A stretch of 64,000 nucleotides of DNA, taken from assembly GCA_963704725.1 (NCBI GenBank), contig OY969934.1:1760001-1824000 (forward strand), in the 5' to 3' direction. Below are positions 31,105 to 44,484 of this stretch, in pieces. Source of the stretch: an uncultured Actinomycetes bacterium. Its GTDB lineage: Bacteria; Actinomycetota; UBA4738; HRBIN12. The number at the start of each line of letters is the position of its first letter. The stretch's first letter is position 1. The translations under genes were made by a program, and so were the position numbers. A model generated the notes under the pieces. It saw only the letters and a program-made list of their open reading frames with translations, ran no database searches and was not told where the DNA came from.

Positions 31105-31182
31105 GCCGAGGTCCCGGTCGCCCTTGAAGGTCGGCTTAGAATCGGCCGCGAGACGACATCCGGTGGAAAGGAGCGCGCCTCG

Positions 31183-33138
31183 ATGAGGAACGGGCTCGTG
31201 CGGCTCACCGAGCCGATGGTCCGCTCGAACGGCGGGTTCCGCCCGGCGACCTGGGACGAGGCCCTGGACCGGGCCGCGGATGGGTTGCGGGCGGCGATCG
31301 AGCGGAACCCCGGTTGGGGAGCCGGCCTGTTCAGCTGCTCGAAGGCCACGAACGAGATGAACTTCGTCGCCCAGAAGTTCGCTCGCCAGGTCCTCGGCAG
31401 CAACAACATCGACAGCTGCAACCGCACCTGACACGCTCCGTCGGTCGTCGGTCTGGCGGCCGTGTTGGGAGCCGGTGGCGGGACCAGCTCCTACGAGGAG
31501 ATCGAGCACACCGATCTCATCGTGCTGTGGGGATCGAATGCGCGAGAGACGCATCCGATCTTCTTCCACCACGTCCTGAAGGGCATCCGCAACGGGGCAC
31601 GGCTCATCGTGGTCGATCCGCGGCGGACGTCCTCTGCCGAATGGGCGGACCTGTGGCTCGGGATCGACGTCGGCGCGGACATCGCGCTCTCCAACACCGC
31701 TGCGCAGGAGATCCTCGCGAGCGGCCTGGAGAACGACGCGTTCATCGCGCGCGGCACCGAGGGGTTCGCGGCCTATCGGGATTCGGTGGCGGTGTGGAGC
31801 CTGGAGCGCGGCGAGCGCGTCACGGGCGTGCCGGCGGACGCGATCCGGGAGCTCGCGCATGCGCTCGCCACGGCCGACCGCGCGGTGATCTGCTGGACGC
31901 TCGGCATCACGGAGCACCACAACGCCGTCGACAACGTGCTCGGGCTGATCAACCTCGCCCTCCTCACCGGCCACGTGGGCCGGTACGGCAGCGGACTGAA
32001 CCCCCTGCGTGGGCAGAACAACGTGCAGGGCGGCGGCGACATGGGCGCGATCCCCAACAAGCTGCCCGGCTTCCAGGACGTCGAGACGGACGTGGGCGCG
32101 CGCCAGCGGTTCGAGAGCCTGTGGGAGACGCCGATCCCGCCGAAACGCGGCTGGCACCTGTCGGGGATGTTCGACGCGATGGAACGGGGCGAGCTCACCG
32201 CCGTCTACTGCATCGGGGAGAACCCCGCGAGCTCGGAGGCCGACGCGCACCGCACGCGGAGGCTGCTCGAGAACCTCGACACGCTGATCGTGCAGGACAT
32301 CTTCCTGACGAAGACGGGCGAGCTGGCCGACGTCGTGCTCCCCGCGGCCAACTCGGCGCTCGAATCCGAGGGAACCGTCACGAACAGCGAGCGCCGTGTG
32401 CAGCGCGTGCGCAAGGCGCTCGATCCGCCCGGCGACGCGAAGGACGACATCTGGATCATCGCGCAGCTCGCCAAGCGGTTCGGCCACGACTGGGGCGACC
32501 TCACGCCGGCCGAGGCATGGGAGGAGCTCCGGCTGCTGTCGCCGATGCACGCCGGGATGTCGTGGACCCGCCTGGAAGAGATGGGCGGGATCCAGTGGCC
32601 GTGCCCGTCCGAGGATCATCCCGGGACGCCGTTCCTGCATGCGCGTCTGTGGGAGGAGGATCCGCACCGCCGGGGCGACCCTGCGCCGTTCAGCGTCGTG
32701 GACTTCGAGCCCCCCGTGGACGAGCTCACCGAGGAGTTCCCCCTCCGCCTCACCACGGGCCGGCGGCTGGACTCGTACAACACCGGCGTGCAGTCGGGCG
32801 GCTACGCGTCGCCGATGCGCCGCCGCGAGAGCATCGACCTGTCGCCGGAGGACGCGGAGCGGCTCGGGGTCGCCGCGGAGGAGATGGTCCGCGTGACGTC
32901 GCGGCGCGGCTCGGTGCAGGCCCCCGTGCGGATCGATCCGGGTCTGCGCGCGGGGCTGGCCTTCATGAGCTTGCACTTCCCCGAGCAGGTCGAGACGAAC
33001 GTGCTCACGATCGACGCGACGGATCCCAAGTCCGGCACCGCCGAGTTCAAGGCGAGCGCCATCCGAGTGGACCGGCTCGATGAGGTGGCCCGGGTGGGCG
33101 GGGACGTCGGGCCGGCGGCGACGCCGAGGCCGGGGTGA
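31183..33138 (+). CDS. Selenocysteine-containing molybdopterin formate dehydrogenase catalytic subunit (TGA 31429-31431 = Sec)
   Basis: ORFs 31183-31431 and 31462-33138 are in the same frame; readthrough gives NIDSCNRT-U-HAPSVVGL; also PLRGQNNVQG and C-terminal TAEFKA. Confidence 0.9.
31432..31461 (+). promoter_or_regulatory. Bacterial SECIS element
   Basis: Stem GGTCGTC (31443-49) / GGCGGCC (31455-61) with GGTCT loop, starting 11 nt after the TGA; layout like the fdhF SECIS. Confidence 0.8.
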
Positions 33139-33144
33139 CGTGAC

Positions 33145-35013
33145 GTGGACCTCCATCTGATGTCGGCGACGCCCACCGAGGAGGAGCGCGAGGCCGTCGA
33201 CGAGGTGCTCGGCCCGCCGGAGTCGGGATGGACCGGCGGCGAGCGCAACCCGCTCGACGGTCACGTCGCTCGGGGCGGGCGTGCCGACCGCGAGCGGCGC
33301 CACCTCCTCCTGCCGGCGCTGCACGCGCTCCAGCGGCGGGCGGGCTGGATCAGCCACGGCGGTCTGAGCTACGTGGCGCGGCGCCTGAGCGTCCCGCCGG
33401 CTGAGGCGTACGGCGTGGCGAGCTTCTACGCGATGTTCTCCACCGAGCCCCGCGCGAAGACGGTCGTGCACGTCTGCGACGACATCGCCTGCCGCGTGGC
33501 CGGGGCGGAGCGGCTGATCGAGGAGGTCGTGGCCGAGGTCGGGACGGAGCGTCAGGACCGTGTGCTCCGGAGCCCCTGTCTCGGTTTGTGCGAGCGGGCG
33601 CCGGCGGCGCTCCTGCAGACGGCCGGCCCGCGTGCGGAGGACGTAGCCGTCGCGCCGGCCGTGGCGGAGGCGCTGAGCGGCATGCTGTTCGAGCACTTCG
33701 ACGCGCCGGCCGAGCCCGCCGGCATCGGCGAGCCCTCCGCGCCCCAGACCGTGCTCGGCCGGGCCCGGGAGGGTCTGAGGCTCCTGCGCCGCGTGGGCGT
33801 GGTCGACCCGGGATCGCTCGACGACTACCGGGCGAGCGGCGGGTACGAGCCCCTGCGACGGGCCGTCGAGATCGGGCCCGGGAACGTGATCCGCGAGCTC
33901 AAGGACTCGAAGCTGCTCGGCCGGGGCGGGGCCGCGTTCCCGGCCGGGGTCAAGTGGGAAGCCGTCGCCGCGCAGGCCGATCGCCCCCACTACTTCGTCG
34001 CCAACGCGGACGAGTCCGAGCCGGGCACGTTCAAGGACCGGGTCCTGATGGAGCGCGATCCGTTCGCCGTGATCGAGGCGCTCACGATCGCCGGCTTCGC
34101 CACCGGCTCGGAGCGCGGGTACCTGTACGTGCGCGGCGAGTACCCTCGCGCCACGGCGGCGTTGGAGCGGGCCATCGGACTGGCCCGTGCCCGCGGGCTC
34201 CTCGGCGACGACGTGATGGGCGGGGGGTTCCGGTTCGACGTCGAGCTCCGCCGCGGCGCCGGTGCGTACATCTGCGGCGAGGAGACCGCGCTCTTCAACT
34301 CGATCGAGGGCAGGCGCGGCGAGCCCCGGAACAAGCCGCCGTTCCCGGTGGAGCGTGGGCTGTTCGGCAAGCCGACCGGCATCAACAACGTCGAGACGCT
34401 CGTGAACGTCCTCGAGGTGCTCTCGCTCGGCGGGCTCGAGTACGCGAAGCTCGGCACCGCCGACTCGACGGGGACGCGCCTGTTCTGCCTGTCGGGGTGC
34501 GTCGAGCATCCGGGGGTGTACGAGGTCGAGCACGGCGTGACCCTGCGCGAGCTGATCCGGCTCGCCGGCGGCGTTCGGGGAGGCCGCGAGCTGAAGGCCA
34601 TCCTGCTGGGCGGCGCCGCCGGGTCGTTCGTCGGACCGGAGGACCTGGATCTGGAGCTGTCGTTCGAGGGCGTGCGGGCCGCGGGGACGACGCTCGGCTC
34701 GGGCGCGGTGATGGTCTTCGACGACTCGGTCAGCCTTCCGCACGTCGTGCTTCGCATCGCCGCGTTCTTCCGTGACGAGTCCTGCGGGCAGTGCGTGCCC
34801 TGCCGGGTGGGGACGGTGCGGCAGGAGGAGGCGCTGCACCGGCTCGTGGCGGAGCGGCCGGTCGGCACGCGCGAGGACGAGCTCGCGCTGCTCGGCGAGA
34901 TCGGTCGGGTGATGCGGGACGCCTCGATCTGCGGCCTGGGCCAGCTCGCGGCGAGCGCCGTCGACTCGGCCGTGTCGCGCCTGCGACTGTTCGACACGGA
35001 GGAGGTCTCGTGA
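33145..35013 (+). CDS. NuoE-NuoF-like fused diaphorase subunit of NAD-dependent formate dehydrogenase
   Basis: VCDDIAC...CLGLC (2Fe-2S), GRGGAAFP, NADESEPGTFKDR, GAYICGEETAL, SCGQCVPCR...CGLG. Confidence 0.9.
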   Translation: MDLHLMSATPTEEEREAVDEVLGPPESGWTGGERNPLDGHVARGGRADRERRHLLLPALHALQRRAGWISHGGLSYVARRLSVPPAEAYGVASFYAMFSTEPRAKTVVHVCDDIACRVAGAERLIEEVVAEVGTERQDRVLRSPCLGLCERAPAALLQTAGPRAEDVAVAPAVAEALSGMLFEHFDAPAEPAGIGEPSAPQTVLGRAREGLRLLRRVGVVDPGSLDDYRASGGYEPLRRAVEIGPGNVIRELKDSKLLGRGGAAFPAGVKWEAVAAQADRPHYFVANADESEPGTFKDRVLMERDPFAVIEALTIAGFATGSERGYLYVRGEYPRATAALERAIGLARARGLLGDDVMGGGFRFDVELRRGAGAYICGEETALFNSIEGRRGEPRNKPPFPVERGLFGKPTGINNVETLVNVLEVLSLGGLEYAKLGTADSTGTRLFCLSGCVEHPGVYEVEHGVTLRELIRLAGGVRGGRELKAILLGGAAGSFVGPEDLDLELSFEGVRAAGTTLGSGAVMVFDDSVSLPHVVLRIAAFFRDESCGQCVPCRVGTVRQEEALHRLVAERPVGTREDELALLGEIGRVMRDASICGLGQLAASAVDSAVSRLRLFDTEEVS

Positions 35014-36600: not shown

Positions 36601-36740
36601 CCGGGCGTCTCGGAACCTTGTCGCGAGGTTCGTCGCGTCTTGGTCCGGCCTTGGAACGTGCGTCGCTACCTTCGTTCGTGTTGGTGCACGGATCGATCCA
36701 TCGGCTTTCGTGCCGCGAAGTCGGGGACGAGGTGGATGTG

Positions 36741-36896
36741 ATGAGGCGAGAGCGGATCATCCGAAAGGCCCCGCGACCGAGGAAAGCGGTCGAGATCCTG
36801 CCGCTCGACCCTCGCGATCCCGACATCGTGCGCGCCAAGGCGCTGCAGGACCGCGTCGTGCGGCGCTCCCCGCGGATCGCGCCCCACGCGGCCTGA
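36741..36896 (+). CDS. 51-aa basic hypothetical protein
   Basis: GAGGTGG RBS; MRRERIIRKAPRPRKAVEILPLDPRDPDIVRAKALQ... Confidence 0.55.
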   Translation: MRRERIIRKAPRPRKAVEILPLDPRDPDIVRAKALQDRVVRRSPRIAPHAA

Positions 36897-36950
36897 CGGC
36901 GAGCCTCGGCTCGGGCGTGGTGGAACCACGGCGGACGGTAGGGTGTCCGC

Positions 36951-37769
36951 ATGACGCACGAGGGCTTCCGCGTCGGCGACGTCGACGTCGCGATCGTCTG
37001 CGAGGGGTTCGCACCGCTCGAGCTGGCCGACGAGATGCCCGGCGTGGACGTCGACTGGGATGCCGAGCGCGCCGCGTTCCCCTGGGCCTTCGCGGGAGCG
37101 GACGCCTGGGCGTGGCACGTGCACGCGTTCGTCCTGCGGACCGGGATCGGGATCGTGATGGTCGACACCGGTCTGGGGTCCTTCCCGCCGATCCAGCCGT
37201 GGGCGGAGTCGACCGAACCCGAACGCGCCTTCGCGGCGGCCGGCGCACGGGCGGACGAGGTTCGCGCCGTGGTCCACACGCACCTGCACGCCGATCACGC
37301 CGGCGGCGCGGTGGTCGACGGGAGGCCCAGGTTCCCCAACGCGGTGCACCACGTCCATCCGGCGGACTGGTCGTTCTTCGGTCGGGGCGATCGGATCGGC
37401 GGCTACACGGCCCGGGGCGGCATGGCGGTGCTCGAGGAGCTCGGCATGCTCGACCTGCGGGAGGGGGACCACGCCGTCGGCGGCGGCGTCCGGGTGGTGC
37501 ACGCGCCGGGCCACACGCCGGGGCACCGCGTCGCGATCCTCGAGTCCGGGGGCGAGACGCTGGCGCTCACCGGCGACCTGCTCCACGTTCCGCCCCAGGT
37601 GACCAACCCGGCGTCGCCCTCGAACCACGACGTGGACGCGGCCGAGGGCTGCCGGTCCCGGTCGGAGATCCTCGCGCAGGCTCGTGACGGCGGCTGGGGC
37701 GTGGTCGTCTCGCACTTCGGCCGCCCGTTGGGGCGGGTGGAGGCGGACGGATGGCACGCCGGCCCCTGA
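36951..37769 (+). CDS. MBL-fold metallo-hydrolase
   Basis: VDTG, THLHADHAGG, APGHTPGH, TGDLLH, SHF. Confidence 0.88.
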   Translation: MTHEGFRVGDVDVAIVCEGFAPLELADEMPGVDVDWDAERAAFPWAFAGADAWAWHVHAFVLRTGIGIVMVDTGLGSFPPIQPWAESTEPERAFAAAGARADEVRAVVHTHLHADHAGGAVVDGRPRFPNAVHHVHPADWSFFGRGDRIGGYTARGGMAVLEELGMLDLREGDHAVGGGVRVVHAPGHTPGHRVAILESGGETLALTGDLLHVPPQVTNPASPSNHDVDAAEGCRSRSEILAQARDGGWGVVVSHFGRPLGRVEADGWHAGP

Positions 37770-37875
37770 CCGAAGGGCCGATGCGGCCGGACGGCGTTCC
37801 GGGGTAGATTCCGGCTCGAAGAGCGGGGCCGCCCGGCCTTCCCGCGCATCAAACCCTCCGCGAAAGGACCCCGCC

Positions 37876-39192
37876 ATGACTCGTCGTGTGCTCATCATGG
37901 GTGCCGCAGGACGCGACTTCCACAACTTCAACGTCGCGTTCCGCGACGACCGGCGGTACGAGGTCGTCGCGTTCACCGCCACGCAGATCCCGTTCATCGT
38001 GGACCGGACCTACCCGGCCTCGCTCGCCGGCGAGGCCTATCCCAATGGCATCCCGATCCACGACGAGAGCGAGCTCACCTCGCTGATCAGCGACCGGGGC
38101 GTCGAGGACGTCGTGTTCAGCTACTCGGACGTGAGCCACGAGTACGTGATGCACAAGGCGAGCGAGGTGATCGCGGCCGGCGCCAGCTTCGTCCTGCTTG
38201 GCCCGCGCGACACGATGCTCCAGGCCGCCGTGCCCGTCGTCAGCGTGTGCGCCGTCCGGACGGGCTCCGGCAAGAGCCAGACCACCCGGGCCATCGCGCA
38301 GACGCTGAAGGCCGCGGGCAAGCGCGTCGTCGCCGTGCGCCACCCCATGCCGTACGGCGACCTCGAGGCGCAGCGGGTGCAGCGGTACGCCACCCTCGAG
38401 GACCTCGACCGCTACGACACCACCGTGGAGGAGCGCGAGGAGTACGAGCCGCACATCGCGACGGGCACGATCATCTACGCCGGCGTGGACTACGGCGACA
38501 TCCTGAAGCAGGCGCAGGGCGAGTGCGACGTCCTGCTGTGGGACGGCGGCAACAACGACCTGCCCTTCTACACGCCGGACGTCCACATCGTCGTGGCCGA
38601 TCCGCTCCGGGCGGGGCACGAGACGAGCTACCACCCCGGCGAGGCCAACCTGCGCATGGCGGACGTGATCGTGATCAACAAGATGGACTCGGCGACGCCG
38701 GAGCAGGTGGCGGCGCTGGCCGACACGATCGCCCGGGTGAACCCCGGGGCCACGGTCGTGCGGGCCAACAGCGCCGTCACGGTGGACGACCCCGGCGCCA
38801 TCGCCGGCAAGCGCGTGCTCGTGATCGAGGACGGCCCGACGCTCACGCACGGCGAGATGAAGTTCGGCGCCGGCGTCGTCGCCGCGCGGGCGCACGGGGC
38901 GGCCGAGATCGTCGACCCTCGGCCGTGGGCGACCGGGACGATCGAGGCCACGTTCCGCAAGTACGACGTGGGGCCGGTCCTGCCGGCGATGGGCTACTCG
39001 GACGGGCAGCTCGGGGAGCTCGAGAAGATCATCGACGCCGCCGACGTCGACCTCGTCGTCGTGGGGACGCCGATCGACCTGCGGCGCGTGATCGATATCC
39101 GCAAGCCCGCCGTCCGCGTGAGGTACGACCTCGAGGTCCTGCCCGACTCGCCGACACTCGCCGACATCCTGCGTCCGGTGCTCTCGGCGTGA
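37876..39192 (+). CDS. cDPG-synthase-like P-loop NTPase, probable arginine synthetase (ArcE family)
   Basis: IMGAAGRDFHNFN, AVRTGSGKSQTT, RHPMPYGDL, EEREEYE, WDGGNND, EDGPTLTHG; coupled to carbamate kinase. Confidence 0.8.
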   Translation: MTRRVLIMGAAGRDFHNFNVAFRDDRRYEVVAFTATQIPFIVDRTYPASLAGEAYPNGIPIHDESELTSLISDRGVEDVVFSYSDVSHEYVMHKASEVIAAGASFVLLGPRDTMLQAAVPVVSVCAVRTGSGKSQTTRAIAQTLKAAGKRVVAVRHPMPYGDLEAQRVQRYATLEDLDRYDTTVEEREEYEPHIATGTIIYAGVDYGDILKQAQGECDVLLWDGGNNDLPFYTPDVHIVVADPLRAGHETSYHPGEANLRMADVIVINKMDSATPEQVAALADTIARVNPGATVVRANSAVTVDDPGAIAGKRVLVIEDGPTLTHGEMKFGAGVVAARAHGAAEIVDPRPWATGTIEATFRKYDVGPVLPAMGYSDGQLGELEKIIDAADVDLVVVGTPIDLRRVIDIRKPAVRVRYDLEVLPDSPTLADILRPVLSA

Positions 39193-40127
39193 ACCGCGTC
39201 GTCGTCGCGCTCGGCGGGAACGCCCTGCTCCGGCGGGGCGAGGAGGACACGTTCGAGAACATGTACCGCTCGTCGCGCCTGGCTGCCGAGCGGATCGCGG
39301 ACATCGCCGCGGCCGGATGGGAGGTCGTGGTGACCCACGGCAACGGGCCCCAGGTGGGCCGCATCCTGCTGCAGCAGGAGGCCGCTCGGAAGTTCGTGCA
39401 CCCCATGCCGCTCGACGTGTGCGGCGCCCTGAGCCAGGGACAGATCGGCTACCTCCTGCAGGTGACGATCGGCGACGTCTTCTTCGAACGCGGCATGGAG
39501 CGTCCGGTGGCGACGATCCTCACGCTCACGCGCGTTCCGGTGGACGACCCCGCGTTCCGGGAGCCGACGAAGCCGATCGGTCCCTTCTACGAGCGCGACG
39601 TGGCCGAGCGGCTCGTCGCCGAGCAGGGGTGGGCCATGAAGCCCGACTCCCACGGCGGCTTCCGCCGAGTGGTTCCGTCGCCGGCCCCGTACTCGATCGT
39701 CGAGGCGCCGGTGATCCGGCGGTTGGTGGGGGACGGCGTGATCGTGATCGCCTCGGGTGGTGGCGGGGTCCCCGTGATCGAGGACGGGCCGCGCCTCGTC
39801 GGCGTGGAAGGCGTCGTCGACAAGGACTCCGCGGCGGCCATCCTGGCCGGCGACGTCGAGGCGACGATGCTCCTCATCCTCACGGACGTGCGACGGGTCC
39901 AGAGCGGGTTCGGGACCGAGGGCGCGCAGGAGCTGGAGCGCCTGAGCGTCGCGCAGGCGCGGGCGCTGTCGGAGAGCGGGGAGTTCGCCGCAGGGTCCAT
40001 GGGCCCGAAGATGCAGGCGGCGATCTCGTTCGTCGAGCGCGGGGGGGCTCGCGCGGCGATCGGCGACCTCGACGACGCGGTGGCGGTGCTCGAGGGGGCC
40101 GCCGGCACCACGGTCGTCCCCGGGTAG
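39189..40127 (+). CDS. arcC: Carbamate kinase
   Basis: VALGGNALL, THGNGPQVG, PTKPIGPFY, RRVVPSP, GGGGVPV, VVDKD, GSMGPK. Confidence 0.95.
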   Translation: MNRVVVALGGNALLRRGEEDTFENMYRSSRLAAERIADIAAAGWEVVVTHGNGPQVGRILLQQEAARKFVHPMPLDVCGALSQGQIGYLLQVTIGDVFFERGMERPVATILTLTRVPVDDPAFREPTKPIGPFYERDVAERLVAEQGWAMKPDSHGGFRRVVPSPAPYSIVEAPVIRRLVGDGVIVIASGGGGVPVIEDGPRLVGVEGVVDKDSAAAILAGDVEATMLLILTDVRRVQSGFGTEGAQELERLSVAQARALSESGEFAAGSMGPKMQAAISFVERGGARAAIGDLDDAVAVLEGAAGTTVVPG

Positions 40128-40136
40128 GCCCCTCGG

Positions 40137-40898
40137 CTAGCGGGGCTTCGCCGCGTCGAGCTCGAGGGCGAACGCGAGGATCCGTTCCCGCACGACGGGC
40201 GCGTCGTGGTCGAGCGTGACCACGTGGTAGGACCGCGGACACGGGACGAGCTCCGTGCGCTCGGACCCGATCTTCGCGAGCACCTTGCGGGCGTTGGCCT
40301 TCGGGATCACGTGGTCCGTGCCCGACTGGAACACCACGACCGGCTGCCGGATCGTGGGGAGCTCGGCGCGGACGAGCCTGGTGAGCGCGGCCATCTGCAG
40401 CGCGGCGGCCACCGGGATGCGGTCGTCGGCGTTCTCGTCGCGTCCCGGGAGCGCGATGTCGTTCGCCACGCCCCGGAGGTCGCGGGGGTACCACCGCACG
40501 ATCGGCGCGAACGCGTGGCGGGCGTCGAACACGTACGGGTTGGCGAGCGCGATGCCGTCCACGTCGTGCGGGCGAGACGCCGCGAGCGCCAGGACGATCG
40601 CCCCGCCCAGGGACTGCCCGAAGACGACGACCGTGCGAGCCCTGCGCCGCAGCTCGTCGAGCCCCCGTCCGGCCTCGTCCGTCCACTCGGTCCAGCGCCG
40701 CGTCCGGAGGTCGTCGAGGTTCGTCCCGTGCCCGGGCAGCCGAACGCCCTCGACGGCCAGTCCGTTGTCGGCGAGCCACTCGCCGATCGGTCGCATCGAC
40801 GCGGGGGAGCCGGTGAGCCCGTGGACGAGGAGGATGCCGACCGGTCCCTCGCCGATGGTGAACGGCTCGGCCCCGACGCGGACGGGCGGCGAGCTCAC
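40137..40898 (-). CDS. Alpha/beta hydrolase (carboxylesterase/monoacylglycerol lipase-like)
   Basis: HGLTGSP, LPGHG, GQSLGG nucleophile elbow, DHV, YHVVTLD. Confidence 0.88.
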   Translation of the reverse strand: MSSPPVRVGAEPFTIGEGPVGILLVHGLTGSPASMRPIGEWLADNGLAVEGVRLPGHGTNLDDLRTRRWTEWTDEAGRGLDELRRRARTVVVFGQSLGGAIVLALAASRPHDVDGIALANPYVFDARHAFAPIVRWYPRDLRGVANDIALPGRDENADDRIPVAAALQMAALTRLVRAELPTIRQPVVVFQSGTDHVIPKANARKVLAKIGSERTELVPCPRSYHVVTLDHDAPVVRERILAFALELDAAKPR

Positions 40899-40905
40899 CC
40901 CGGGA

Positions 40906-41043
40906 TCAGACGGACCGCTTGCGACGGCCGGGGTTCACGAACAGCGTCCCCACCATGTACAGGAACGCGAGGCCCACGGCGCCGGTGAGCGCGACCAGCA
41001 GCGCCAGGAAGGTCCACTCGAGCAGGCCCCAGGCGGCGAGCAC
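40906..41043 (-). CDS. 45-aa membrane peptide
   Basis: MLAAWGLLEWTFLALLVALTGAVGLAFLYMVGTLFVNPGRRKRSV*; TAGCAT -10 six nt upstream (leaderless); not in the ORF track. Confidence 0.65.
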   Translation of the reverse strand: MLAAWGLLEWTFLALLVALTGAVGLAFLYMVGTLFVNPGRRKRSV

Positions 41044-41068
41044 GGCGCCATGCTACTTCCTCGGGGCG

Positions 41069-41112
41069 GGGGCTACGCTCACTGGCTGCCGCTCGCTCGC
41101 TCCTCGAGCCCC
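41069..41112. repeat. 44-bp hairpin repeat, copy 2
   Basis: GGGGCTACGCTC-N9-CGCTCGCTCGCTCCTCGAGCCCC, stem extended by GGGGCG...GCACCCC. Confidence 0.7.
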
Positions 41113-41123
41113 CGCACCCCCGC

Positions 41124-42167
41124 TCAGGCGGGCAGCCCCGCGGCGGGGACGAGGATCTCCGCGTCGACCCACGTCACCCCGACGCCGAGGTACTGGGCGG
41201 CGGCTTGCGACAGGTCGATCACCCGCTCCAACCGCCCGTACGGGCCCCGGTCGTTCACCAGGACGAGGGCGCAGCGGTCCCCGCTGTGCACCCGCAGGAA
41301 CGTTCCGAACGGGAGCCACCGGTTGGCGGCGGTGAACAACCGGGGGTCGAAGATCGCGCCGGTGGCGGTGGGCTGGCCGCCGAACTCCCACCCGTACCAG
41401 CTCGCGTAGCCCTCGAAGGACTGGCCCGTCTCGACGAGCCCCTCGGGCGTCTCGCAGGTCCGGCCTCCGGTGGGACCGAGCAGCGCGAGCAGGCCGCTCT
41501 GGTCCTGGCCGTAGTCGATCACGTTCAGGTCCCAGCTCCCCGCGCGGGCCACGGCCGCGGCGACCGCCTCGCGCTGGGCCTCCAGCTCGGCTTCCAGGTG
41601 CGCGGCCTCGGCCAGCCGCTCGGCCTCGTCGACCTTGGTTTGCATCACGTCGAGCATCGAGCGGAGCCGTTCGAGCCTCGGCTCCATGGCCTGGCGCGCC
41701 GCCTCCGCCCGGGCCCGGCGCGCGAGGAGATCGGCCTCGGCGACGAGCGAGTCGCGAAGGGCCGAGTCGTCGAGCGAGATCGTCCGCGAGGCGTACTCGG
41801 AGATCGTGGCCATATCCGCGAAGCTCGGCGCGGCGAGCAGCGCCTCGAGGGACCCGGCGGGTCCGAACTGATAGGCGCTGCGGATCCGGGTTCGCAGACG
41901 TGCTGCGGCCTCGTCGACGGCCCGCTGGGCGGAGGCCGCGTCGCGGATCGCCACCACCGTCTCGAGCCAGGCCCGCCCCACCCCGGCCTCCAGCCGGTGG
42001 TAGCGGGCGAGCAGGACGTGGAGCTCGCGGTGCAGCTCCACCAGCCGATGGACCTCCGGCAGGTCTCCCGCCTCGTGCACGAGGCGCCCGATCCCGTGGG
42101 CGTGCGCGGGCACGGCGGGCAGGCTCGCCGCCAGGGCGAGGACGAGGGCGATGGCGCGTCGTCGCAT
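41124..42167 (-). CDS. Secreted coiled-coil protein with RlpA-like double-psi beta-barrel (lytic transglycosylase) domain
   Basis: Signal peptide ending PAHA, coiled coil, then GYASWYG...TATG...TAANRWLPFGT...VNDRGPY...IDLSQAAA. Confidence 0.85.
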   Translation of the reverse strand: MRRRAIALVLALAASLPAVPAHAHGIGRLVHEAGDLPEVHRLVELHRELHVLLARYHRLEAGVGRAWLETVVAIRDAASAQRAVDEAAARLRTRIRSAYQFGPAGSLEALLAAPSFADMATISEYASRTISLDDSALRDSLVAEADLLARRARAEAARQAMEPRLERLRSMLDVMQTKVDEAERLAEAAHLEAELEAQREAVAAAVARAGSWDLNVIDYGQDQSGLLALLGPTGGRTCETPEGLVETGQSFEGYASWYGWEFGGQPTATGAIFDPRLFTAANRWLPFGTFLRVHSGDRCALVLVNDRGPYGRLERVIDLSQAAAQYLGVGVTWVDAEILVPAAGLPA

Positions 42168-42293: not shown

Positions 42294-43319
42294 GTGAAGC
42301 GGATCGGCATCCTGACGGGGGGCGGCGACTGTCCCGGCCTCAACGCGGCGATCCGGGCCGTCGTACGCAAGGCCGTCGGCGCTCAGGGGTGGGAGGTCCT
42401 GGGCTTCCGCGACGGCTGGCGCGGAGTGATGGGCGGCGGCGTCCAGCCGCTCACGGCCGAGTCGGTGCAGGGCATCCTGCACCGCGGCGGCACGATCCTC
42501 GGCAGTAGCGGCTCGAACCCGTACCTCGAGGGCGGCGTCGAGCGGCTCCGGGACGCGTTCCGCGACCTCGCGATCGACGGGATCATCGCGATCGGCGGCG
42601 AGGGCACGCTGGGGGCCGCGGCGGCGCTGACGCAGGACGGGCTGCCGGTGATCGGGATCCCCAAGACGATCGACAACGACCTCACGGGGACCGACACGTG
42701 CATCGGGTTCGCCACCGCGGTCCAGGTGGCGACCGACGCGATCGACCGCCTGCACACGACGGCGGAGAGCCACGACCGCCTGATGATCGTCGAGGTCATG
42801 GGCCGCAGCGCCGGGTGGATCGCGATCGAGTCCGGGATCGCCGGCGGCGCCGACGTGATCCTGATCCCCGAGAAGCCGTTCGACGTCGGCGAGGTGGCCA
42901 CGCATCTGCGCCGGCGGCACCTCCGGGGTCATTCGTTCTCGATCGTCGTCGTGGCGGAGGGTGCTTCTCCGGTGGAGGGGACGATGGACATGCCTGAGTA
43001 CGCCGTCGACGAGCGCGGGTTCACGAGGTTCGGCGGGATCGCCCAGACGCTCGCGCCGATTCTCGAGCGGGAGACCGGGTGGGAGGCCCGGGTGACGGTC
43101 CTCGGCCACGTGCAGCGGGGCGGCAGCCCGGTCGCCGCCGACCGGATCCTCGCCACGCGGTTCGGGACGGCGGCCGTCGACCTCGCGGCGAACGACGGAT
43201 GGGGGCGCATGGTCGCGGCCAGGGGAGAGGACATCGTCGACATCCCCCTGGCCGACGCGGCCAAGGCCCGCTCCGTGCCCAAGGAGCTCCTCGAGGTCGC
43301 CGAGGTCTTCTTCCTATGA
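42294..43319 (+). CDS. pfkA: 6-phosphofructokinase, ATP-type signature
   Basis: [35 protein letters not shown]; TACAAT -10 at 42213. Confidence 0.92.
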
Positions 43320-43335: not shown

Positions 43336-44484
43336 ATGAAGGTCGGGATCCTGACGGGCGGGGGCGACGTTCCCGGTCTGAACGCGTGCATCAAGGCCGC
43401 GACGATGCGGGCGGTCGAGGAGGGACACGAGGTGGTCGGCATCCGCCGCGGGTGGGGCGGCCTGCTGAACTGCGATCCCGACGACGTCGAGTCCGTCGCC
43501 GCGAACATCGTGACCCTCGATCCCGCCGCCGTGCGCACGATCGACCGGACCGGTGGCACGGTCCTGCACACCTCGCGGACCAACCCCGCGAAGGTCCGGG
43601 CGTCGGAGGAGCCCTCGTTCCTGGCCGACGGGCGGGAGGGGGACGAGCGGCGCGACCACACGAACCACGTGCTCAAGGTGCTCGCCGCCCTGGGGATCGA
43701 GGCCATGATCCCGATCGGCGGGGACGACACGCTGTCGTTCGCCCTGCGCCTGCACGACGAAGGCGTGCCCGTCGTGGCGATCCCCAAGACCATGGACAAC
43801 GACGTCCACGGCACCGACTACTGCATCGGCTTCTCCACCGCCGTGACCCGCACCGTCAACTTCATCCACCAGCTCCGGACGAGCGCCGGCTCGCACGAGC
43901 GCCTGGCGGTGGTCGAGGTCTTCGGGCGCTACAGCGGCGAGACGTCGCTCGTGTCGGCCTACCTGTCCGGCGTGGAGCGCGCCATCATCTCGGAGGTCCC
44001 GTTCGAGATCGAGCGCCTCGCGTCGCTGCTGATGGACGACAAGCGCCGCAACCCGTCCGGCTACGCGATGATGACCATCTCCGAGGGCGCCACGGTCGTC
44101 GGCGGGGAGATGGTCCTCGGCGGCAAGGAGGACGCCTACGGGCATCGCAAGCTCGGCGGCGTCGGGCAGCTCGCCGGGGAGCTGCTGCACGAGATCACGG
44201 GCGAGGGCATCATCAACCAGCAGATCGGCTACCTCATGCGTTCGGGCTCGCCCGACTCGCTCGACCTCATGGTGGCGATCAACTACGCGGTGATGGCCGC
44301 CGACCTCCTGGTCCAGGGGCAGACCGGCCGGCTCGTGGCGCTGCGCAACGGCAACTACGCGAACGTCCCGATCGACGTGACCCGCCAGGGCGTGAAGCGC
44401 GTCGACGTCGGCGCGCTGTACGACGTCGGTCAGTACCGGCCCAAGATCCGCCACGTCGACGGCAAGCCGATGTTCCTGTACTGA
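43336..44484 (+). CDS. PfkA-family phosphofructokinase, PPi-type signature
   Basis: [27 protein letters not shown]. Confidence 0.88.

Follow-up and report, generated by a model that had tools for sequence, protein, structure and literature searches.

An arcE-like gene overlapping arcC in an uncultured actinomycete probably serves ATP-conserving arginine breakdown without arginine deiminase

We analysed a 64,000-nucleotide stretch of DNA (hereafter, the window) from an uncultured Actinomycetes bacterium (GTDB lineage Bacteria; Actinomycetota; UBA4738; HRBIN12), which covers positions 1,760,001 to 1,824,000 of contig OY969934.1 in assembly GCA_963704725.1 (C1:1760001-1824000), and focused on two overlapping genes, an arcE-like gene for a putative arginine synthetase and arcC, the gene for carbamate kinase. 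Very probably, the pair is an operon for ATP-conserving, deiminase-free breakdown of arginine, in which the products of both genes would act together with a distantly encoded ornithine carbamoyltransferase (OTC). In the proposed pathway, ArcE would convert L-arginine, ADP and Pi (inorganic phosphate) into citrulline, NH3 and ATP; the OTC, encoded ~245 kb away, would turn citrulline and Pi into ornithine and carbamoyl phosphate; and ArcC would use carbamoyl phosphate and ADP to form ATP and carbamate. Each arginine is predicted to give two ATP, the same yield as in the published 'arginine synthetase pathway' of Thermococcus kodakarensis, which comprises ArcE (TK2200), ArcB (TK0871) and ArcC (TK2158) (Michimori, Yokooji, Atomi 2024, PMC11032458). 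For the T. kodakarensis enzyme, TK2200p, the reversible reaction between arginine, ADP and Pi on one side and citrulline, ATP and NH3 on the other was demonstrated and found to be L-arginine-specific (PMC11032458). A preliminary description of the window had named this enzyme as a member of the family, in agreement with Michimori et al. 2024 (PMC11032458).

The arcE-like gene (37876-39192, + strand), recognised from its translation and homology, starts with ATG and encodes a protein of 438 aa. A Shine-Dalgarno-like GAAAGGA (AAAGGA-type) can be read in the sequence at 37862-37868 (+), 7 nt 5′ of this ATG. The arcC gene (39189-40127, +) encodes 312 aa, with a GTG start at 39189-39191 and a TAG stop at 40125-40127. 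The TGA stop of arcE (39190-39192) and the GTG start of arcC share three bases (GTGA), and the two genes are most likely a translationally coupled two-gene operon. The ArcE-like protein contains the motif GAAGRDFHNFN at residues 9-19 and a Walker-A-like P-loop, RTGSGKS, at residues 128-134. Pfam and NCBIfam hold no model for it; only weak matches were obtained, to cobW (25.7 bits) and ZigA (15.6 bits). The product of the downstream open reading frame (ORF) matched the TIGR00746 arcC model over residues 3-310 of its 312 with 391.4 bits against a cut-off of 358.25 and, judged by this score, is a true carbamate kinase. The ORFs, the motifs and the TIGR00746 score are all as expected from the preliminary description, which had noted a 438-aa GAAGRDFHNFN/P-loop protein overlapping arcC through GTGA.

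Close homologs of the ArcE-like protein number in the thousands: among 1.84 billion representatives searched, 3593 matched at E ≤ 0.001 and 657 at E ≤ 1e-30. Their source labels read 'predicted GTPase' or 'cyclic 2,3-diphosphoglycerate synthase', and the earlier remark that the family is commonly labelled as a cyclic 2,3-diphosphoglycerate (cDPG) synthase or a GTPase thus agrees with the public names. Thermococcales proteins were reached stepwise, from a locus in a Methanofastidiosia metagenome-assembled genome (L089) to the class of that genome, and then with one protein of the class (L101) as the query. One strong homolog per genome was present in 117 of the 121 sampled genomes of this class, at 50-66% identity to the L089 protein. 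The L101 query retrieved proteins whose source names are Thermococcus litoralis, Pyrococcus furiosus DSM 3638 and P. horikoshii OT3, along with others; it is 92% identical to the P. furiosus protein (P0303). The search also retrieved a cluster (P0294; 90% identity, 201 members) that has T. eurythermalis, T. peptonophilus and Palaeococcus pacificus among the 15 members listed; T. kodakarensis is not among these 15 of 201.

Compared directly, the window protein and the P. furiosus DSM 3638 protein align over 431 of 438 aa with 61% identity and 77% similarity (552 bits), and identity to four further named Thermococcales proteins is 59-60%. Homologs of arcE are reported to occur throughout Thermococcales, with P. 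furiosus explicitly included (PMC11032458), and the threshold for an arcE homolog given in the legend of the Supporting Information to that paper is BLASTP E < 1e-100 (PMC11032458), which the match to the P. furiosus protein far exceeds. These comparisons place the 438-aa protein, at full length and with high identity, in the family to which the Thermococcales ArcE proteins belong, and ArcE activity with specificity for L-arginine is predicted for it from this homology. Apart from the ArcE ortholog, many genomes of the Thermococci-type class contain a further ORF of ~440 aa (for example, G120:C5:214764-215168) with a weak match to the central P-loop part of ArcE only (E 1e-5 to 1e-7, 22-33% identity); going by these alignments, it is a distant ArcE paralog.

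Conservation within the family was assessed in an alignment of 201 members, with a column counted as conserved when at least 95% of the 168 sequences outside the window's order (three long-branch representatives set aside) agreed. The window protein keeps 114 of the 117 conserved columns, and the stretches kept include the N-terminal GAAGRDFHNFN block, the P-loop and WDGGNND. Its identity to members from all other phyla and from archaea centres on ~60% (range 47-84%). The family thus evolves slowly, which argues against a changed function. In a FastTree tree of the 201 sequences, the window protein falls into a well-supported clade of 31, composed of its own order and one other sequence.

We then considered the genomic company of ArcE genes. 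Within the window's order, the gene is present in 52 of 61 genomes (the source genome included) and in 32 of the 36 that are of high quality; of the 29 loci fetched, 23 have arcC immediately downstream, and one of the other six ends at a contig end. In two related genomes, frameshifts or stop codons break the ArcE gene into two or three pieces (G144, C6:121098-122407; G161, C1:262805-264113), and in a third an arginine deiminase (ADI)-family gene is split in two (G130, C19:254574-255726); these may be pseudogenes or assembly errors. For other phyla, two scans of named public genomes, each providing 80 loci from its best 600 matches, with several contigs fetched twice, yielded 159 loci. A flanking arcC was found in 26 of them (at ≤300 bp in 22) and a flanking OTC homolog in 21 (at ≤300 bp in 12), both genes being present in 11. 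After removal of duplicates and partial matches, and with neighbours scored within 1.5 kb, 152 distinct loci remained, of which 30, from many phyla, were linked: 13 to arcC, 10 to arcC and OTC, and 7 to OTC. On the FastTree tree, the 13 arcC-only sequences require 11 changes and the 7 OTC-only sequences require 7. Linked members are thus scattered over the tree, and the association with arcC or OTC is not limited to one subfamily.

A natural fusion (P0127, 766 aa) combines carbamate kinase at the N-terminus (NF009007, 313.8 bits against a cut-off of 266) with an ArcE domain at the C-terminus, the latter sharing 53% identity with the window protein. Three independent lines, namely synteny within the order, neighbours across phyla, and the fusion, tie the ArcE family to carbamate kinase and OTC. 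The counts for the order, for other phyla and for the tree include genomes flagged as unpublished (G132, G155, G162 and G180), and the conclusions are unchanged without them; their loci include L190, the one truncated at a contig end, and L214, which counts among the 23 with arcC. Two longer ArcE forms, P0133 (655 aa) and P0142 (651 aa), carry additional N-terminal portions for which Pfam gave no match.

The genome of the source organism (one contig of 3,450,992 bp, 95% complete by marker genes) was searched in full for genes of arginine metabolism. It contains a single ArcE gene. No match to the arginine deiminase model TIGR01078 (arcA) or to PF02274 was found in the whole genome at E ≤ 0.001, while controls matched. 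Of the four matches to the OTC model, all outside the window, one is a true OTC above the cut-off (400 bits, C1:2044629-2045531, ~245 kb from the pair). The genes argG (456 bits), argH (471 bits) and carB (1400 bits; cut-off 1027) are all present with scores above their cut-offs. As an alternative route of arginine breakdown, no clear arginase was obtained in the genome search; an agmatinase is present (191 bits; cut-off 174.3), a second ureohydrolase scores below every cut-off, and one gene of the ornithine-cyclodeaminase family is of uncertain assignment. These results bear out several points of the preliminary description. It had seen neither arcA nor arcB in the window, had suggested that the genome be checked for arcA, argF/arcB and argG/argH (arcA proved absent, one OTC lies elsewhere, and argG and argH are present), and had proposed an ArcE route with an OTC encoded elsewhere. 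That proposal accords with the 61% identity, the 114 of 117 conserved columns, the absence of arcA, the remote OTC and the distance from CpgS described below, all of them properties of sequence.

A second carbamate kinase gene (360 bits, C1:2359201-2360127) lies directly beside a gene for a carbamoyltransferase resembling aspartate carbamoyltransferase, and a YgeW/OTC-like carbamoyltransferase (C1:2347974-2348930), which reaches none of the model cut-offs, is encoded ~11 kb from it. This kinase and both unusual carbamoyltransferases sit among genes for xanthine-dehydrogenase subunits (C1:2343000-2362999), more than 520 kb past the end of the window. With its own carbamate kinase, the cluster does not compete for the arcC of the window. 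A 439-aa neighbour of the YgeW-like carbamoyltransferase, considered as a second ArcE copy, was rejected, being a xanthine-dehydrogenase subunit.

We infer the catabolic direction from the coupling to arcC, from the presence of argG/argH and carB, and from the reasoning of Michimori et al. for organisms that have argininosuccinate synthetase and lyase (ASS/ASL); the OTC at C1:2044629-2045531 would be the partner carbamoyltransferase. That ArcE instead runs synthetically, making arginine from citrulline, ATP and free ammonia in place of or in addition to argG/argH, seems unlikely. The reaction is reversible, with an equilibrium constant K of ~10 at 80 °C, citrulline-fed T. kodakarensis can make arginine this way, and a biosynthetic role has been suggested for organisms that have no ASS/ASL (PMC11032458). 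However, argG (456 bits) and argH (471 bits) are both above their cut-offs here and carB is also present, so that ArcE is not needed for arginine synthesis; arcE is translationally coupled to the gene for a carbamate kinase, an enzyme that consumes carbamoyl phosphate and yields ATP; and for organisms with ASS/ASL the same paper interprets ArcE as catabolic (PMC11032458).

Several observations weigh against ATP-conserving breakdown of arginine as the role of the pair. The sole ArcE characterised in the literature searched is archaeal, the activity of the window protein is a prediction, and the link to TK2200 runs through named Thermococcales orthologs and not through the sequence of TK2200 itself. 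The window protein departs from the family at three highly conserved positions (I184V, E214Q and T385I). No carbamoyltransferase gene adjoins arcE-arcC; the sole true OTC gene stands alone between PolX and pheT, and its product probably also serves biosynthesis. Across the family, neither arcC nor OTC lies within 1.5 kb in 122 of the 152 distinct loci. A scan of positions 36700-41200 gave no promoter-like or terminator-like site around the two genes. Finally, a full-length PF02274 match was found in 10 of the 61 genomes of the window's order (in one of them split in two), and ArcE coexists with the full-length PF02274 protein in eight of these ten, the other two having no ArcE match. Because eight genomes have both, ArcE does not strictly exclude an ADI-family protein in the order. 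The idea of strict arcE/arcA complementarity was accordingly rejected.

A further explanation is that the substrate of the pair is a different guanidino or ureido compound, processed perhaps together with the product of the metallo-beta-lactamase (MBL)-fold hydrolase gene upstream or with one of the two unusual carbamoyltransferases. Besides the absence of an adjacent OTC, it draws on the MBL-fold gene found upstream in 12 of 29 related loci and on the YgeW/OTC-like carbamoyltransferase that falls below every model cut-off. We nevertheless regard it as quite unlikely: D-arginine, agmatine, guanidine and arginine dipeptides were not accepted by TK2200p (PMC11032458), the window protein agrees with the family in 114 of 117 conserved columns and shares ~60% identity with members in arcE-arcC-OTC operons, and the unusual carbamoyltransferases are encoded more than 520 kb beyond the window with a carbamate kinase of their own. 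The preliminary description had held such a substrate in reserve as its fallback, and this gained no support, the characterised enzyme being L-arginine-specific by the published account and the window protein highly conserved. We give equally little credence to a broader version, in which the parting of the pair from any carbamoyltransferase in this order, often in the company of an MBL-fold hydrolase, would reflect either another ureido or guanidino substrate or a reversible ammonia-fixing or ATP-buffering module, in place of the plain arginine-to-ornithine route. If true, it would mean a functional shift within a very conserved family.

Still with arginine as the substrate, the main role of the pathway might be the supply of carbamoyl phosphate for pyrimidines and for [NiFe]-hydrogenase maturation, and not ATP harvest. 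Such a role was shown for T. kodakarensis in 2026: disruption of arcE or arcB leads to pyrimidine auxotrophy, while disruption of arcC has little effect (PMC13260591). There, however, this role is tied to a missing carbamoyl phosphate synthetase (PMC13260591), and because carB is present here, such a role is unlikely in this organism. Moreover, arcE shares its operon with arcC, whose product destroys carbamoyl phosphate, and not with an OTC gene. Taken together, we consider supply of carbamoyl phosphate as the main role highly improbable.

The annotation as a cDPG synthase was weighed against structure as well as sequence. An AlphaFold2 model of the ArcE-like protein (pLDDT 94.3, pTM 0.92) has a P-loop NTPase fold with a match to LpxK, as reported for TK2200p. 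The best Foldseek match in the PDB is CpgS, the cDPG synthase of Methanothermus fervidus (8oru; E 2.4e-17, 13% identity, TM-score 0.48), and the next is Aquifex LpxK (4EHY; E 1.4e-8, TM-score 0.63 on the target's length, 13% identity). The copy of the PDB that was searched holds no ArcE structure. CpgS (8oru, 8ork and also 9sxb) is of similar length (436-460 aa) and has a related P-loop core; it differs in its substrate and biological setting, its structural alignment has 13% identity, and the sequence match is central only. With the single sequence, phmmer matched solved CpgS 9sxb at E 0.02 over residues 214-319 (~100 residues), and a profile of the family matched solved CpgS at E 3.7e-19 in the central P-loop region. 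The ArcE-like protein thus has no close full-length similarity to defined CpgS. LpxK, the tetraacyldisaccharide-1-phosphate 4′-kinase, shares the P-loop kinase core, and the authors of the ArcE study superposed a model of TK2200p on 4EHY and predicted a nucleotide cofactor (PMC11032458); it is, however, a membrane-associated lipid A kinase of ~310 aa, functionally unrelated to arginine metabolism. That the window protein is a cDPG synthase, as many database labels have it and as the top structural match might suggest, is almost certainly wrong: the single-sequence match to 9sxb is marginal, the profile aligns the central P-loop part only, the structural match is remote, cDPG is reported to be confined to hyperthermophilic methanogens (PMC10690619), and Thermococcales ArcE orthologs carry the identical label, so that 'cyclic 2,3-diphosphoglycerate synthase' is a propagated name.

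The deiminase-free pathway favoured here was compared with known systems. With the ArcE pathway of T. kodakarensis it shares the same full-length protein family, ~60% identity to five named Thermococcales orthologs, the same relatives of the predicted fold, the presence of arcC and OTC, and the absence of arcA. In contrast to the archaeal system, the protein is bacterial, comes from a high-GC (~73%) actinobacterium and is a putative ArcE; arcE overlaps arcC, whereas the gene numbers in T. kodakarensis (TK2200, TK0871 and TK2158) are far apart; and the actinobacterial host has carbamoyl phosphate synthetase and ASS/ASL, which T. kodakarensis does not. The classical ADI pathway (arcABC) has the same OTC and carbamate kinase steps downstream and the same overall outcome, arginine becoming ornithine, CO2 and two NH3. 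It differs in that here there is no arcA or PF02274 protein and the first step is predicted to form ATP, giving two ATP per arginine instead of one; in addition, no arcD antiporter gene or arcB gene is found beside arcE-arcC.

Most likely, the pair is a routine bacterial instance of a pathway that is already in the literature and adds no new principle, since the enzyme, the pathway, its wide spread in bacteria including Actinomycetota, and the linkage to arcB and arcC were all published in 2024 (PMC11032458). In that work, an actinomycetote (Intrasporangium) is listed among the holders of arcE, and arcE is noted near arcB and/or arcC in some genomes (PMC11032458). Our literature search returned no paper characterising a bacterial ArcE, a weak negative, as part of the search was swamped by unrelated 'Arce...' words.

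The window has a high G+C content (~0.68-0.76), and no evident link to arginine was found among the genes that surround arcE-arcC. Directly upstream, 106 bp from arcE, lies the gene of the MBL-fold hydrolase (36951-37769, +; Pfam Lactamase_B, 68.7 bits), the best NCBIfam match of which, an AidB-type lactonase, scores 109 bits, far under the 360-bit cut-off. Its homologs stand upstream of the ArcE gene in 12 of the 29 related loci compared with 1 of the 159 loci of other phyla; the gene is probably a lineage-specific neighbour and not part of the pathway. Further upstream are a MobA-like gene and a formate-metabolism block (FTHFS, FdhD, a molybdopterin oxidoreductase and a Nuo51-like subunit). 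The oxidoreductase gene (31105-33138, +), located downstream of FdhD, is split by one in-frame TGA at 31429-31431. If this codon is read as selenocysteine (Sec), the local sequence becomes SCNRTUHAPSV, which we take to resemble the Sec site of formate dehydrogenases; the gene probably encodes a selenocysteine-containing formate dehydrogenase alpha subunit. The gene of the Nuo51-like NAD(H)-binding subunit follows next (33145-35013). Downstream of arcC are a convergent alpha/beta hydrolase gene, a gene for a DPBB-domain protein and two tandem phosphofructokinase-family genes (42294-43319 and 43336-44484, +; Pfam PFK, 349 and 224 bits), which may form a pair of ATP-dependent and pyrophosphate-dependent enzymes or one heteromeric enzyme.

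If the assignment is right, substrate-level phosphorylation would bring this actinobacterium two ATP for each arginine with no need of arginine deiminase, and the same would probably be true for most of its order, in which 52 of the 61 sampled genomes have the gene. For the family, it would be one more case in which a 'cyclic 2,3-diphosphoglycerate synthase' or 'GTPase' label should read arginine synthetase. For the organisms, it would bear on the survival of such actinobacteria when they live on amino acids or when oxygen is limiting.

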